Shown: piece after piece, positions 167-9,916 of the stretch
Numbering within the stretch: position 1 is the first letter of the stretch
Layout of the letters: the number at the start of each line of letters is the position of its first letter
Virus record (IMG/VR): IMGVR_UViG_3300015263_000331
Span: 1 to 47,888 of that record
Source of the DNA: a virus
Lineage: Duplodnaviria; Caudoviricetes
Reading direction: 5' to 3' (one strand)
DNA length: 47,888 bases
Program-made: the position numbers and the translations under genes
Notes under the pieces: model-generated
The model's database searches: none
The model's input: only the letters and a program-made list of their open reading frames with translations
What the model was told of the DNA's origin: nothing

Positions 167-235
167 GATCCTGTCTCTTCAGAGTGGGTAGGATCGGATT
201 CCCACTGACCCCGGTCCTCAGCCGGGGTTTCGACA
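167..235 (-). ncRNA. Hammerhead ribozyme HHR1, type II with pseudoknot
   Basis: Minus strand reads UGUC-GAAA-CCCCGG(CUGAGGA)CCGGGG-UC/AGUGGG(AAUCCGAUCCUA)CCCACU-CUGAAGA-GACA-GGAUC. Full CUGANGA/GAAA/NUH core and three stems; loop I GAUCC pairs with 3' tail GGAUC. Predicted cut between 207 and 206. Confidence 0.95.
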
Positions 236-1024
236 TTACCCTTCCCAGTCGTCAGCCGTGATGGCGGGCTTCTGGGGCACGAACCCGGTGACACGGTCCA
301 TGAGATCATGGAGGCGGATCGTCCGGGGCATCAACTCGATCAGCGACACGCCCTTGTTGGCGGGCTTCAGGGCCTCGGTGGCGGCGTTGAACATGCGCCA
401 TGCGGTCTGCTCGCCGTGGTCGTAGGACGGCTCGTCCCACTCCTGCACGACCTTACCGACCCGGCTGGGGTTGATCACCTCGGACCGCAGCATGTCGACG
501 ATGATGTGGTCGGCCTGCCGCTTGTCCTTGATCCGGTACTCGCGATAGTGCTCCCAGCGGGCCTCCTGATTGACCTTGTAGAGCTGGGTCTGGTTGACCG
601 CATTGCCGATCAGGTCAGGCAGGTCGCGCATGATGTGGACCGTGTGCTTGCGGCTGAAACGAATCTCAGCCGAGAACGCAAGGTTGTCACACACGAAGAC
701 GTGTGAGCCGAAGCCCATCGCAGCCGGGAAGCTCTTGTCGATCGAGTTCCGAATGCCGACGACCAGCGCGAACTCTTCCTGAACTGAGCTTCCATTCAGA
801 AGCTCGATCAGGCCGAAGTACCGGGCCTTGTCGTGGGTCAGGCTGTGCGCCTGATTGCCGAAACGAAAGCCCATCGCCTGCAGCCGCTCTTCGGCCATAT
901 CCACGACGGTCTGGTGACCGACCGGAAAGTAGGTGTCCGTAGCCGGAGGCAGGACGATTCCTTCAAGCTCTTCGCGCTCGACGTGGCTGGCACCGCAGTG
1001 CAGCATAAGGTTTGCTCTTGCCAT
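236..1024 (-). CDS. DUF932-family protein
   Basis: 262 aa with motif GIRNSIDKSFPAAMGFGSHVFVCDNLAFS...RKHT and C-terminal AWRMFNAATEALK, typical of DUF932; SD CAGAGGAG at 1039-1032. Confidence 0.85.
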   Translation of the reverse strand: MARANLMLHCGASHVEREELEGIVLPPATDTYFPVGHQTVVDMAEERLQAMGFRFGNQAHSLTHDKARYFGLIELLNGSSVQEEFALVVGIRNSIDKSFPAAMGFGSHVFVCDNLAFSAEIRFSRKHTVHIMRDLPDLIGNAVNQTQLYKVNQEARWEHYREYRIKDKRQADHIIVDMLRSEVINPSRVGKVVQEWDEPSYDHGEQTAWRMFNAATEALKPANKGVSLIELMPRTIRLHDLMDRVTGFVPQKPAITADDWEG

Positions 1025-1050: not shown

Positions 1051-1113
1051 TTGGCAGTCTCTTCAGACCCGGAATGCCAATCCGGGTGACGCCCCCTCCG
1101 GGGCGTTTCGACT
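1051..1113 (-). ncRNA. Hammerhead ribozyme HHR2, type II with pseudoknot
   Basis: Minus strand reads AGUC-GAAA-CGCCCC(GGAG)GGGGCG-UC/ACCCGGA(UUGGCAU)UCCGGGU-CUGAAGA-GACU-GCCAA. Loop I UUGGC pairs with tail GCCAA. Predicted cut between 1088 and 1087. Confidence 0.95.
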
Positions 1114-1431: not shown

Positions 1432-1498
1432 TGGCAGTCTCATCAGTATCGGAATGCCAATCCGATATACCTGCCCCTCCTCTAGGACAGGTTTCAAC
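1432..1498 (-). ncRNA. Hammerhead ribozyme HHR3, type II with pseudoknot, GUA cleavage triplet
   Basis: Minus strand reads GUU-GAAA-CCUGUCC(UAGAGGAG)GGGCAGG-UA/UAUCGGA(UUGGCAU)UCCGAUA-CUGAUGA-GAC-UGCCA. Loop I UGGCA pairs with tail UGCCA. Predicted cut between 1468 and 1467. Confidence 0.92.
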
Positions 1499-1529
1499 GA
1501 TGGCCGGGATTAACCCACACCGGCAGGGT

Positions 1530-1570
1530 CCGTTCACCCTCCCGGCACTAGAAGCCGGGAGGGTTTGCGG
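1530..1570. other. Strong GC-rich intergenic hairpin, possible processing, stability or terminator-like element
   Basis: ACCCTCCCGGC-N7-GCCGGGAGGGT perfect 11-bp inverted repeat (1536-1564), extendable by CCG/CGG; no clear U-tract. Confidence 0.55.
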
Positions 1571-1573
1571 TAG

Positions 1574-2062
1574 CTATACAGCTTCACGCTTGGTGGCTTC
1601 GTCACCAGTGGCGATCTTCAGGGTGAAGTGGAACCCACGGCGCTTCTTCGCCGGGGTGGCTTCGGACTGCGTGTAGCGAACCGTGTCGATGTATTCGACC
1701 AGATCGTCGTCCAGATCAGGCACGAAGTTCCTGATCTTGTAGTGAGCCTCGGGCGGCAGGTAGACCTTGTAGATGCAGTAGCCTTGCGGCTGCATCGTAC
1801 GAGCATTCATATCACGCTCTTCCTGCAGGCGCTGGCACTCCCTGAGAGAGGCATGTGTCTGCCAGTAGGCAGCGCTGCTGGTGAAGAAGTGGTACTCACG
1901 CTTGCGATCTTTTCTCCAGCGGTCCTCGCGGAAGCTAGAGATCACTTCGAGGCAATCCTCGAAATCATCAGCCGTGGCGTCACTGCCAGACTGGCGCAGA
2001 TCGGGGATCAAGGTTTCACGCAGATGGGTGACCAGTGCGTAGATATTGTCGAAGCTATGCAT
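1574..2062 (-). CDS. First early gene, hypothetical protein (162 aa)
   Basis: SD CAGAGGAG at 2076-2069, ATG at 2062; no family recognised. Confidence 0.85.
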   Translation of the reverse strand: MHSFDNIYALVTHLRETLIPDLRQSGSDATADDFEDCLEVISSFREDRWRKDRKREYHFFTSSAAYWQTHASLRECQRLQEERDMNARTMQPQGYCIYKVYLPPEAHYKIRNFVPDLDDDLVEYIDTVRYTQSEATPAKKRRGFHFTLKIATGDEATKREAV

Positions 2063-2084
2063 TTCGTTCTCCTCTGTTGATGGG

Positions 2085-2152
2085 TGGCCTGTCTCATCAG
2101 AGCGGGTAGGCCATCTCCCGCTGACCCCGTCGTGGTGACCGGGGTTTCAACA
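2085..2152 (-). ncRNA. Hammerhead ribozyme HHR4, type II with pseudoknot
   Basis: Minus strand reads UGUU-GAAA-CCCCG(GUCACCACGA)CGGGG-UC/AGCGGG(AGAUGGCCUA)CCCGCU-CUGAUGA-GACA-GGCCA. Loop I UGGCC pairs with tail GGCCA. Predicted cut between 2123 and 2122. Confidence 0.95.
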
Positions 2153-2418
2153 ATCAGAGGAGGAGATTGTTGAGTAGGGCGAGTCGTTACCTTCTGTCCC
2201 CGAGCGGTTTACGGCTTGCTCCGCTTGCCTCGGGAAGGTCGCTACTACCAACGTCGCTTCTACAGGTTCCTGCTGACATTCGCCTTTCGGCCAAGTGGTC
2301 AGACTACGCAGCGTCTTCCCGTCCCCAGTTTCACCGAGTGGGTCTCGTCGAAGTCTTGGCTTCGCTTCCCCGGCCAGTGCCAGATGGGGGCTGTGGGCCG
2401 TGGTCACGTCCTGTGACA
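2153..2418 (-). ncRNA. Structured 5' leader of the early transcript, candidate novel ncRNA
   Basis: About 265 nt between the promoter and HHR4 with no SD-led ORF. Contains a 5' hairpin GUCAC/GUGAC, a GCC-GAAA-GGC tetraloop and a long interrupted stem at 2252-2169. Confidence 0.5.
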
Positions 2419-2424
2419 GCTCCC

Positions 2425-2453
2425 ACTTTAGGGGAACCCAGTTCCCATGTCAA
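2425..2453 (-). promoter_or_regulatory. sigma70-type early promoter (leftward)
   Basis: TTGACA (2453-2448), 17 bp spacer, TAAAGT (2430-2425); A-tract upstream resembles an UP element. Confidence 0.8.
2432..2446. promoter_or_regulatory. Palindromic operator-like site in the promoter spacer
   Basis: Perfect GGGAAC-N3-GTTCCC; a 10/12 match GGGAAA-GGA-GTTCTC lies at 2485-2499. Confidence 0.5.
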
Positions 2454-3015: not shown

Positions 3016-3373
3016 ATACTGGGCGTTCAGGGACGAAGTCCGGTGGAAGATGCAGGGCGTCAAGCTCCATGGATCGTGCGTGGTGTTCTTCATGCCGATG
3101 CCGAAGAGCTGGAGCAAGGCCAAGCGCGAGAAGATGCTGGGCCAACTGCACCAACAGAAGCCAGACCTCAGCAACCTGCTGAAGGCACTGGAGGACTCGC
3201 TCTACGGCGACGACTCCCACATTGCCCACTACGGCAGCTTGACGAAGGTCTGGAGCGAGACAGGCCACATACTGGTCAAGGATGGATGCCAGCATGGCAC
3301 TGAAGTTCTGCAGGCCCTGCGGCGAGCGCTGGGGCGTAGCGAGCATCTGGAACGTGAGTCATTGGGAAGTTGA
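2921..3373 (+). CDS. rusA: RusA-family Holliday junction resolvase
   Basis: PKPRMT...FFMPMPKSWSKAK...KPDLSNLLKALEDSLYGDDSHI RusA catalytic motif; start moved to ATG 2921 after GGGGAG. Confidence 0.9.
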   Translation: MLYEIVPTPKPRMTQRDKLPSRVKPPRPPVARYWAFRDEVRWKMQGVKLHGSCVVFFMPMPKSWSKAKREKMLGQLHQQKPDLSNLLKALEDSLYGDDSHIAHYGSLTKVWSETGHILVKDGCQHGTEVLQALRRALGRSEHLERESLGS

Positions 3374-7421: not shown

Positions 7422-9916
7422 CAGGGATGTTCGGGCCAAGCAGTGAGTCCGTGCTTGAAGACGGCACGTCAGCGGGGGCCATGGATCAAGGCTATACGGA
7501 CAAGGGGCCAGCGAAGGATGACGACGGCATGGATGCCGATCCCGGCAATGATGCCTTCTGGATCAAGCGAGCACGCGACAGCTACATGACTGGGCAGGAC
7601 TGGTTCGACACCTCAGTCCGCTACAGGATGGAAGACAGCATGCGGCTCTTCAATAGTGAACATCCCCGAGGGAGCCGCTACAACGACGAGGCCTACGAGA
7701 AGCGCAGCAAGCTGTTCAGGCCAAAGACCCGTGCTTCGATCCGTAAGCTGGAGGCTGCAGCGGTCGCCGCCTTCTTCGCCACGCAGGACGCTCTGACCTG
7801 CACGCCACCGAACCAGCGTGACAAGATGCAGCGCTTGGCTGCTGACTCCATGGCCGAGCTACTGAACTATCGCCTGACCACGCAGGGCAATATCCCGTGG
7901 TATCTAACCTGCATCGGGGCCCTGCAGGATGCTTCCAAGCAAGGCGTGGTGATCAGCAGGCAGCAGTGGGTCTACCGTGAGGTGGAGGAGGAGTACGACG
8001 AGGAGATCGTCGACGCCCTGACGCAGCAGCATTTCACCCAGATCAACCGGGAGACAAGGGTAGTGGCGGATCGTCCTGATGTGGTGCTCAGGCCGGTCGA
8101 GAACATCCTGTTCAGCCCAGCCAGCGACTGGCGCAACCCGGTACAGACCTCACCGTTCCTGATCGACATGGAGCCATTCTATGTGGGTGAGGTCGAGGAG
8201 CGCGGCGAGGATGGCAAACAGGGGCCGTATGACGTGGCATGGCGCAAGCTGTCACGCGATACGATCAGGAGTGCGATGAAGCAGTCCTACGATCCTGTGC
8301 GGCAGGCACGTGAAGGTCACCGGGAAGATCGCTATGACGACCAGCGCTCAGCCATCCTCGAATACGATGTGGTCTGGGTGCATCACAACTATGTTCGCAT
8401 CTACGGGCAGGAGTGGTATTTCGCCACGCTGGGCACCGAGGTCATGCTGAGCGACCCCGTGCCACTCGAAGAGGTAACGCCGCTGGGTGAGCGGCCCTAT
8501 GTGCTGGGCATGGCCACGATCGAGCCGCACAAGCCGTATCCGACCTCCGTGGTCGAGCTGGCCAGACCGTTACAGGAAGAGATCAATGACCTCTCGAATC
8601 TCAGGATCGACAACATCCGTCACATCATTTCTCCGCGCTATTTCATCAAGCGAGGCACGTCGGTCGACATTAGGTCTCTCCTACGAAATATCGCGGGAGG
8701 TGTCACGGCTATGGAAGACCCCAAGAACGACGTCAACATCCGAACCATCCCTGACGCCACTGGCAGCAGCTTCCAAGAGCAGGACAGGCTCGCCATCGAG
8801 ATGGACGATCTTACGGGGGGCTTCAATCAGTCTAGCGTCGCTTCTAACCACAATATCAATGAAAGAGTAGGCAACACCCAGATGGTCGGTGAGGCCGCGA
8901 ACCAGATCACCGAGATGACCATCAGGACCTTCAGTGAGACGTGGGTCGAACCGGTACTGCAGCAGGTGCTCGAACTGGAGCGTGCGCTGGAGAGTGATCA
9001 GGTGGTGATGGCGATCGTCGGCCAGCGCATGGGCGTGCCGCCAGAGCAAATCTTCCGCATGCTGGACCTGCCGGTGCGGGTAACCGTCAATGTAGGCTTC
9101 GGTGCGACCAACCCACAGAAGCGGCTGGAGAAGGTCACCATGGCCTTCGCCACGCTGGCCCAGATCAATCCCGAGTGGGTGGCCAAGGCGGATCAGGCTG
9201 AAGTGGTCACCGAGGTGTTGGGAGCGGTGGGCTTCAAGAACGCTGAGCGCTTCTTCCCAGACATCGCCGAGGGTGCTCAGCAGCAAGACCCGAGGTTGCA
9301 GCAGGCCCTGCAGGAGAATGAGCAGCTCAAGGCGCTACTGCAGGGTGAGGGCCAGAAGCATCAAGCCATGCTGCAGGGCAAGCAGATCGACGCTCAGGTC
9401 AAGGTGCAGATCGAGCAGGGCCGGTTGCAGTATCAGCGTGAGAAGGACATGACGCAGGCTGAGCTGGCTCACAAGGTCGAAGAGAACAAGTGGAACATGA
9501 AGATGCTCGACATCAACATCGAGCGTGAGCAGAACGAGTTCAGGCGGCAGGAGCTGATCCAGCAGCGCATCGCCCTGAACCATACCATCACCATGGATGA
9601 GCGGCAGCTCGCCATGCAGCAGCAACAGGCAGACATGCAGGCGCAGCAGGTCCACATCAACCCGCAAACAGGTCAACCAACCAAAGCCGCCAACAAGGAA
9701 GGCGTGAAGCAGATACAGCAAGCAGGCTCAGGGACGAGTCCCCAGCATCCGTCACCACCCAACCCGAAGGAGGCCTCGACCAAAGAGCCGACTCCACCGA
9801 AAGCCCCGGATGGTGGTGGGGGAAGAATCGCCAACCAACCCAAGATAGGAAACGAGGATCGCGCTGGCGTGATCGCAAGAGGACGTTATGGTGCGGTGCC
9901 GTTTCAGGAGGGCTAG
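7418..9916 (+). CDS. Portal protein (podovirus, P22/N4-type) with Gln-rich C-terminal barrel
   Basis: 832 aa; RSKLFRPKTR, PLQEEINDLSNLRIDNI motifs; long coiled-coil C-terminus; position upstream of scaffold and capsid. Confidence 0.88.
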   Translation: MTGMFGPSSESVLEDGTSAGAMDQGYTDKGPAKDDDGMDADPGNDAFWIKRARDSYMTGQDWFDTSVRYRMEDSMRLFNSEHPRGSRYNDEAYEKRSKLFRPKTRASIRKLEAAAVAAFFATQDALTCTPPNQRDKMQRLAADSMAELLNYRLTTQGNIPWYLTCIGALQDASKQGVVISRQQWVYREVEEEYDEEIVDALTQQHFTQINRETRVVADRPDVVLRPVENILFSPASDWRNPVQTSPFLIDMEPFYVGEVEERGEDGKQGPYDVAWRKLSRDTIRSAMKQSYDPVRQAREGHREDRYDDQRSAILEYDVVWVHHNYVRIYGQEWYFATLGTEVMLSDPVPLEEVTPLGERPYVLGMATIEPHKPYPTSVVELARPLQEEINDLSNLRIDNIRHIISPRYFIKRGTSVDIRSLLRNIAGGVTAMEDPKNDVNIRTIPDATGSSFQEQDRLAIEMDDLTGGFNQSSVASNHNINERVGNTQMVGEAANQITEMTIRTFSETWVEPVLQQVLELERALESDQVVMAIVGQRMGVPPEQIFRMLDLPVRVTVNVGFGATNPQKRLEKVTMAFATLAQINPEWVAKADQAEVVTEVLGAVGFKNAERFFPDIAEGAQQQDPRLQQALQENEQLKALLQGEGQKHQAMLQGKQIDAQVKVQIEQGRLQYQREKDMTQAELAHKVEENKWNMKMLDINIEREQNEFRRQELIQQRIALNHTITMDERQLAMQQQQADMQAQQVHINPQTGQPTKAANKEGVKQIQQAGSGTSPQHPSPPNPKEASTKEPTPPKAPDGGGGRIANQPKIGNEDRAGVIARGRYGAVPFQEG

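Follow-up and report, generated by a model that had tools for sequence, protein, structure and literature searches.

In phage T7, the early polycistronic mRNA is cut by RNase III into single-gene messages, and the cleavage is reported to aid the translation of some early genes. Type II hammerhead ribozymes cluster among phage and prophage genes and are proposed to cut long phage transcripts into gene-length mRNAs (available text of PMC3088659; RF02276). According to the same text, the pseudoknot between loop I and the 3' tail is needed for fast cleavage (PMC3088659). Engineered hammerhead and twister switches sequester the SD, which is freed by cleavage; 5- to ~100-fold effects are given for twister constructs in the available portion of PMC5052635, which cites Wieland and Hartig (2008). 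Of the bacterial self-cleaving ribozymes, glmS is described as the only well-understood one, effects on translation being treated as a suggestion (PMC6765202, in the sections available). Type I hammerheads in the 5' UTRs of fungal and plant RNA viruses are reported to be needed for translation initiation (PMC13725137, in the part available).

The locus considered here belongs to a linear virus record of 47,888 bases, estimated to be 74% complete and carrying an SU10-type portal gene. The window is this whole stretch of DNA, at its full length. A minus-strand operon occupies the left end behind a sigma-70-type promoter, and transcription would start at about 2418. Two promoter sites were found against 1.6 expected by shuffle, so the promoter match alone is weak evidence. 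The operon comprises four type II hammerhead cassettes, each followed by CAGAGGAG and a start codon. HHR4 is the first cassette to be transcribed, about 270 nt past the presumed start. The features are as follows.

2425 to 2453, minus strand: sigma-70-type promoter (TTGACA, 17 nt, TAAAGT; 10 of 12 matches)
2174 to 2418, minus strand: leader (about 245 nt) separating promoter and hairpin; neither an Rfam family nor a homologue was found
2249 to 2252, minus strand: GUUG, where the long leader stem has its base; able to form 4 Watson-Crick pairs with CAAC 2172-2169
2165 to 2173, minus strand: hairpin 5' arm UCAACAAUC; hairpin -10.3 kcal/mol
2155 to 2162, minus strand: anti-SD strand CUCCUCUG; duplex with the SD -15.0 to -16.2 kcal/mol
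2147 to 2155, minus strand: hairpin 3' arm GAUUGUUGA; takes in the stem II 5' arm (GUU) and the GA of GAAA
2085 to 2151, minus strand: HHR4, type II hammerhead (RF02276, descriptor, pairing check)
2069 to 2076, minus strand: strand CAGAGGAG, which contains the SD, 6 nt before the AUG; this 8-mer is found ahead of each of the four cassette genes
1574 to 2062, minus strand: first early gene, 162 aa, no family; preceded by HHR4
1440 to 1495, minus strand: HHR3 core; GUA triplet, no anti-SD; Rfam 25.3 bits, below cut-off
1060 to 1109, minus strand: HHR2 core; Rfam 49.6 bits (1049-1113), no anti-SD; upstream of the DUF932 gene
236 to 1024, minus strand: DUF932 gene, preceded by HHR2
176 to 231, minus strand: HHR1 core; no anti-SD; found by descriptor, absent from the Rfam output

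HHR4 is similar to the type II hammerheads in the available text of PMC3088659 in its open stem II of 2-3 bp, its loop I/3'-tail pseudoknot and the presence of copies flanking single genes. Its RF02276 score is 38.1 bits (2152-2083) against a cut-off of 37. Stem I and stem III are each closed and stem II is open, with 3 bp (GUU 2151-2149 with GAC 2093-2091) that include a G-U pair next to the core. The core consists of GAAA (2148-2145) and CUGAUGA (2100-2094), and the GUC triplet ends at 2123, after which the cut is predicted. The predicted pseudoknot has six complementary pairs (2113-2108 with 2090-2085). By all features examined, HHR4 is a member of the RF02276 family, cleavage itself being predicted. 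Rfam placed two of the four cassettes above the cut-off (HHR2 and HHR4) and HHR3 below it. [quoted passage not shown] The first early gene gave no Pfam or PHROG match, no usable Atlas hit and no fold lead, and one relative, 63% identical, was found.

Two further observations concern the stretch behind this gene. In HHR3, one stem II pair is G-U, and loop III contains a sequence resembling an SD. Between the stop codon of gene 1 and HHR3 (window 1500-1563, minus strand) lie two strong hairpins without a U tract.

A first-pass annotation had read HHR4 as a switch with an anti-SD and a competing hairpin. All the strands on which it relied were found at their positions: CUCCUCUG at 2162-2155, CAGAGGAG at 2076-2069, UCAACAAUC at 2173-2165, GAUUGUUGA at 2155-2147 and GUUG at 2252-2249. 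The helices claimed from them are Watson-Crick throughout, with 8 of 8 pairs in the anti-SD helix, 9 of 9 in the hairpin and 4 of 4 between GUUG and CAAC. The hairpin loop has 9 nt and takes in seven of the eight anti-SD nucleotides. Across the entire minus strand, CUCCUCUG is present twice, at 2162 and 12969. The anti-SD had also been described as extending stem II; it is a perfect 8-nt complement of the SD, but the helix is not continuous with stem II, lying further out by 3 nt on the 5' side and 14 nt on the 3' side. As stem II has 3 bp and is then followed by the 6-bp pseudoknot, the anti-SD helix closes around the ribozyme and is not stacked on it as a longer stem II. The anti-SD (2162-2155) lies 5' of the predicted cut at 2123 and the SD (2076-2069) 3' of it, which assigns them to different cleavage products.

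For the chance test, the 30 nt upstream of stem II were replaced 20,000 times by shuffled versions and 20,000 times by draws from a Markov model trained on the leader. An anti-SD of at least 8 bp arose 301 times per 20,000 in the shuffle and 50 times under the Markov model, and a hairpin of at least 9 bp 4 and 8 times, respectively. Among the 384 scored cassettes, counting the matches listed, the 9-bp hairpin of HHR4 is the longest helix of this kind, the next being three of 7 bp. The complementarity could have arisen by chance beside an ordinary processing hammerhead: an 8-bp anti-SD occurs in 0.25-1.5% of shuffles, very many windows were read, and no direct homologue was found. Against this, the two helices together appeared in 0 of 20,000 shuffles and 0 of 20,000 Markov draws, and the anti-SD is restricted to the leader-proximal cassette both here and in other lineages. 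Mere coincidence is thus considered highly improbable.

The RNA was folded from three start points, with and without the pseudoknot strands held free, giving six contexts. The anti-SD state had P 0.11, 0.97 and 0.49 with the pseudoknot constraint and 0.79, 0.88 and 0.81 without it; ViennaRNA leaves out the pseudoknot and core energies, and the dominant state varies with the folding context (0.11 to 0.97). The hairpin state lay 0.1-5.4 kcal/mol above the ensemble over the six contexts. Breaking the hairpin in silico brought the anti-SD to P 0.98-0.99, and breaking the anti-SD brought the hairpin to P 0.96-0.99. The folding thus bears out the claim that the two helices exclude each other, since breaking either one locks the other at 0.96-0.99 and their energies are close. 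An active core with an open SD was predicted to cost 7.6-10.9 kcal/mol more than one with a closed SD. In the precursor, the SD was free with a probability of 0.00-0.58 depending on the context, and the hairpin state opens the SD without cleavage. The earlier claim that cleavage gates translation agrees with the closed SD predicted for the active core, but it falls short, as uncut RNA in the hairpin fold would also have an open SD.

In a nascent series with the full leader and the pseudoknot strands free, the hairpin had P 0.96-0.99 from 2147 to 2050 and P 0.88 at 2040. The 5' cleavage product folds the hairpin at P 0.99. Binding between the products with the hairpin intact versus its inner half broken was -5.4/-10.4, -9.4/-15.0 and -4.1/-9.9, that is 5-6 kcal/mol weaker with the hairpin; predicted product binding was 5.0-8.9 kcal/mol stronger once the hairpin was broken. 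In these models, the hairpin is likely to be a means of freeing the SD after cleavage.

The anti-SD/SD helix and the core-masking hairpin could together constitute a self-resetting latch that ties the opening of the first-gene RBS to the removal of the leader, a reading for which belief and doubt are about evenly balanced. The hairpin would form with the emergence of GUUGA, and closure of stem II would become possible only about 55 nt later. As the hairpin would form first, the ribozyme would start in the off state with the anti-SD held in the loop. The SD would emerge about 80 nt later, and the looped anti-SD could capture it. This capture would open the hairpin, close the ribosome site, free the core strands and license cleavage. 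After the cut at 2123, the hairpin would re-form on the 5' product and strip the anti-SD from the SD; its refolding, with a predicted gain of 5-6 kcal/mol, would release the processed mRNA with an open SD. If a ribosome were at the SD first, the RNA would be held in the uncut hairpin state and translated uncut. Such a latch would need no external ligand. We infer cleavage, the in vivo order of events and any regulation.

The energy of the active HHR4 fold speaks against the latch. This fold was placed 8.7-10 kcal/mol above the ensemble, and HHR4 may therefore be no more than a slow ribozyme; in one calibration its cost was 8.8 kcal/mol versus 5.1-5.7 kcal/mol for HHR1-3. Alternatively, the anti-SD could be a folding clamp without regulation, which shuts HHR4 off from the leader, while cutting is constitutive, the covering of the SD is a by-product of a short tail and the hairpin only aids the parting of the products. 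With the full leader, breaking the anti-SD raised the cost of the active fold from 10.0 to 13.4 kcal/mol. The tail from the pseudoknot to the AUG is about 22 nt long, with the SD as its only G-rich part, and anti-SDs are almost confined to ribozymes that follow a non-coding leader. In addition, all the tandem prophage hammerheads assayed in vitro cut, according to the available text of PMC3088659. A clamp has, however, no need for a 9-bp hairpin that masks the core in nascent RNA, and 12 of the 15 unselected leader-type cassettes, among the matches listed, lack a 6-bp helix. This explanation is regarded as unlikely, if worth keeping in view. It also makes uncut, clamped RNA untranslatable and hence overlaps with the self-resetting latch.

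The released leader could itself be the functional product of HHR4, its looped anti-SD acting in trans, as a small RNA, on the SDs of the four early genes or on host mRNAs. Bacterial sRNAs typically present C/U-rich seeds in loops. The anti-SD pairs equally well (-15.0 kcal/mol) with the SD of all four cassettes, and the 5' product, as given above, folds the hairpin almost completely. The equal match follows, however, from the shared SD, and with the full leader the hairpin weakens the binding to micromolar or weaker. A role in trans is accordingly given very little credence.

The leader had been supposed to control cleavage through its conformation. The pairing of GUUG with CAAC had P 0.93 in the fold from 2260 and P 0.10 with the full leader. 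Removing GUUG in silico raised the hairpin from 0.01 to 0.17 in the local fold and from 0.88 to 0.98 with the full leader. The balance is therefore shifted by GUUG/CAAC in the expected direction, but the effect is small and involves 4 bp, and no sensor function is indicated. The leader scanned against Rfam gave no match at E up to 5, and its fold was no stabler than shuffles (z +0.72). As neither a ligand nor an aptamer is indicated, HHR4 would probably not count as an aptazyme in the strict sense.

A wider form of the same idea is that the leader binds a ligand, an ion or a protein, its long stem taking or releasing CAAC and thereby setting the hairpin, cleavage and translation. Besides shifting the balance, GUUG/CAAC prolongs the leader stem in the same register, and the hairpin and anti-SD states are near-isoenergetic, so that a change of a few kcal/mol could decide between them. 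A further lineage that shares the 3' design (L163, L276 and L317) has compensatory changes in 9 of 57 predicted leader pairs, in three sequences, and regulated cleavage of phage hammerheads is suggested, not demonstrated, in the available text of PMC3088659. The GUUG/CAAC contribution is, however, about 1.4 kcal/mol; besides the z-score of the leader, no Rfam family was found in any leader scanned, the leaders of other lineages show no likeness to that of the window, and the first genes differ, have no family and hint at no ligand. Sensing by the leader is decidedly improbable on this evidence.

Two open frames touch the leader. One of 86 codons (window 2407-2147, minus strand) spans it and stops at a UGA in the hairpin 3' arm; one of 35 codons (2294-2187, minus strand) stops at 2187, 14 nt before the hairpin. 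Leader peptides were set aside, the starts of both frames having poorly spaced SDs; if translated, either frame would shift the leader fold. A 9-bp pairing between the leader and stem III (2376-2368 with 2144-2136) was dropped, its P being 0.0 at 37 °C. A hammerhead hidden inside the leader was rejected, as there was no CUGANGA by eye and no Rfam hit.

Searches for relatives of the leader returned no homologue, whether by sequence or through relatives of the neighbouring genes. Protein scans of viral contigs seeded with gene 1 and DUF932 found none, blastn against annotated phages gave short matches only, and nhmmer over the fetched loci recovered only the leader itself. The sequence of the portal relative (L062) stops short of the early region. 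In a metagenome scan, four loci matched only the N-terminal 33-61 residues. No hammerhead was seen around the metagenome matches in the stretches read, and Rfam gave none in L088-L090. In the phage-like arrays of these three loci, an intergenic element of ~70-80 nt is repeated before one gene after another, in the place that hammerheads take in the window. Its order is a short inverted repeat, a GCGGGC-type motif and an SD (for example, just upstream of 5001 in L090). The element gave no Rfam match and is possibly another processing or promoter element.

With no homologue of the leader available, the recurrence of the design was tested instead. Five pattern scans of viral contigs gave 58, 25, 59, 79 and at least 122 loci (full flanks for 80 of the last), and a scan of GTDB genomes gave 9 loci; together with 51 wider regions, all were screened with the hammerhead descriptor. 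The first pool held 294 distinct cassettes, of which 260 were scored and 34 dropped for want of an SD with a start codon or of a flank. An anti-SD was counted within 16 nt of stem II. At 7 bp or more, it was present in 4 first cassettes out of 38 (the window being one of them) and in 1 solitary cassette out of 51, but in none of the 153 internal and none of the 18 unclassed ones (p 0.0014); the four such cassettes besides the window had been retrieved with anti-SD-seeded patterns, and L134, L136 and L138 among them are from related phages. The CCUC-seeded viral loci and the 9 GTDB loci contained no anti-SD of at least 7 bp. First cassettes behind a coding gene were without an anti-SD.

Several more general readings were rejected on these counts. 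The anti-SD is not a feature of all first cassettes, being absent at 7 bp or more from all 24 unselected ones, whose median duplex energy was no different from that of internal cassettes (p 0.40). Nor is it a general feature of hammerhead cassettes, given the zero among the 153 internal ones. Masking of the stem II arm alone is common (P >0.9 in 25 of the 153 internal cassettes), and core masking was discarded as a marker, its pairing probability not being discriminating. Judged by the upstream DNA, the class that matters is the hammerhead behind a non-coding leader.

The last scan, which was blind to the anti-SD, added at least 147 new cassettes, at least 124 of them scored, and brought the pool to 384 among the matches listed. 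With the threshold of 6 bp, set after the data were seen, 3 of the 15 unselected leader-type cassettes among the matches listed had an anti-SD, compared with none of the 280 unselected after-gene cassettes and none of the 18 others (p 1.1e-4). Twelve of these 15 leader-type cassettes were under 6 bp and none reached 7 bp, again among the matches listed. At 8 bp or more, the counts for all cassettes among the matches listed were 3 of 21 leader-type, 1 of 337 after-gene and 0 of 24 other, the three leader-type cases forming one clade that came from an anti-SD-seeded pattern. The script classed HHR4 as after-gene because of the 86-codon open frame in its leader; HHR4 and one other window cassette were excluded from the class counts of the pooled 384. 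Some leader-type cassettes, L103 and L129 for example, are without an adjacent anti-SD. A comparable hairpin and duplex (-14.7) are present in L095, but these lie within the last codons of a gene, and L095 was not counted as support.

Some other arrangements were noted. L141 (G050) contains 14 type II cassettes by descriptor in ~6.5 kb, and 11 by Rfam in the record. In six gut-type phage records (L099, L105, L108, L110, L121, L122), the cassette pair is headed by a variant hammerhead in which an additional U follows CUGACGA; next to this hammerhead comes a conserved non-coding stretch instead of an immediate SD. In Roseobacter phage CRP-212 (L061), positions 3070-3113 in an unannotated gap before gp54 match the 3' half of HHR4 over 42 nt (88.6%), so that this cultured phage probably has a hammerhead missing from its annotation.

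Leader-proximal cassettes of other lineages do carry an anti-SD beside stem II. The strands lie 1-5 nt before stem II, and their sequence varies with the SD. The anti-SD/SD pairs are as follows.

AUCUCCUA/UAGGAGAU: L134 and L136, with related forms in L138 and L350
CUUCCC/GGGAAG: L163, L235/L276 and L317
CUACCC/GGGUAG: L335
L133: 9-bp anti-SD case directly after a stop codon

When the strands of nine cassettes were matched crosswise, that of the window scored -15.0 with the SD of its own cassette, at least 4.8 kcal/mol better than with the other SDs (-6.3 to -10.2). Each anti-SD was best, or within ~1.5 kcal/mol of the best, with the SD of its own lineage; L133 fits the L134 group too, and L350 is weak (-8.7). 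No protein shared with the window was detected in the compared regions of these lineages (3-kb loci only for L335, L350 and L317), and the window portal had no match in ten records. Among relatives the first gene varies and the anti-SD is kept. That each lineage has an anti-SD/SD pair of its own suggests that selection has acted repeatedly on the leader-proximal position.

One of these lineages retains the competing hairpin, and another lacks it locally. The consensus fold of L163, L276 and L317 has a 6-bp hairpin over GUC-GA around the anti-SD (17 of 18 cells paired), with no compensatory change in the three sequences. In L134, L136 and L138 (the G043/G045/G047 clade), no local hairpin was found (P 0.09-0.17).

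The leaders of these phages have features of their own. Three related GC-rich phages have in common a promoter-proximal leader of 225-270 nt (L163 2213-2436, L276 3233-3472, L317 1551-1816, minus strand), a candidate new phage ncRNA; the leaders of L163, L317 and L235 gave no Rfam family. The anti-SD-bearing first hammerheads of L134 and L136 have a C-U mismatch by the cleavage triplet (UUC), unlike their internal cassettes, and this mismatch may slow cleavage. In the L138 leader (8334-8556), one segment can pair either with GUC-GAAAC, leaving the ribozyme off (2-nt bulge; seen by eye), or with the start-codon region, where it would extend the anti-SD helix over the AUG.

Put more broadly, HHR4 could be a natural ribozyme-gated translation switch that has arisen several times in phages. 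Its structured leader, hairpin and anti-SD would set the cutting of the first hammerhead, and ribosome occupancy or a signal read by the leader would time leader release and the switching on of the first gene. This larger claim is advanced tentatively and is clearly the more doubtful of the two. For the many hammerheads near phage genes, the HHR4 cassette offers a concrete candidate role, the opening of an RBS by cleavage. The processing of T7 early mRNA relies on RNase III, a host protein enzyme, and here ribozymes would take its place. Unlike HHR4, the type II hammerheads in the available text of PMC3088659 are described without an anti-SD helix, a core-masking hairpin or a link to translation initiation, and "ribosome binding" has 0 occurrences in its main text. 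No natural SD-sequestering hammerhead was found in the literature, mostly outside subscription journals, and the supplementary alignments of PMC3088659 may hold unremarked cases.

HHR4 is similar to glmS, as presented in the available sections of PMC6765202, in being, as predicted, a self-cleaving RNA in a bacterial-type 5' leader that would be tied to the expression of the next gene. The glmS RNA itself gave no Rfam match here, and the downstream gene is without a family. Cleavage of glmS depends on a metabolite cofactor (GlcN6P) and lowers expression by decay, whereas cleavage of HHR4 would open the ribosome site, with no cofactor known (PMC6765202, same sections). With the hammerheads in the available part of PMC13725137, HHR4 shares a natural, viral origin and, as proposed, the promotion of translation by cleavage. 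Those hammerheads differ in being type I, in belonging to RNA viruses and in serving eukaryotic, cap-independent initiation with no SD/anti-SD (PMC13725137).

Cleavage that opens an RBS was found in print, mostly outside subscription journals, only as an engineered device. As in the engineered switches of the available text of PMC5052635, the SD/anti-SD pair of HHR4 lies across the open end of the ribozyme, with its strands on different cleavage products. HHR4 differs from them in being natural, in having no aptamer indicated and in its type II topology, with a pseudoknot between the core and the SD helix (PMC5052635, same text). It further differs in its competing hairpin, which would allow uncut RNA to have an open SD and, by prediction, drives the release of the products, suggesting a natural solution to the product-release problem of a strong anti-SD helix.
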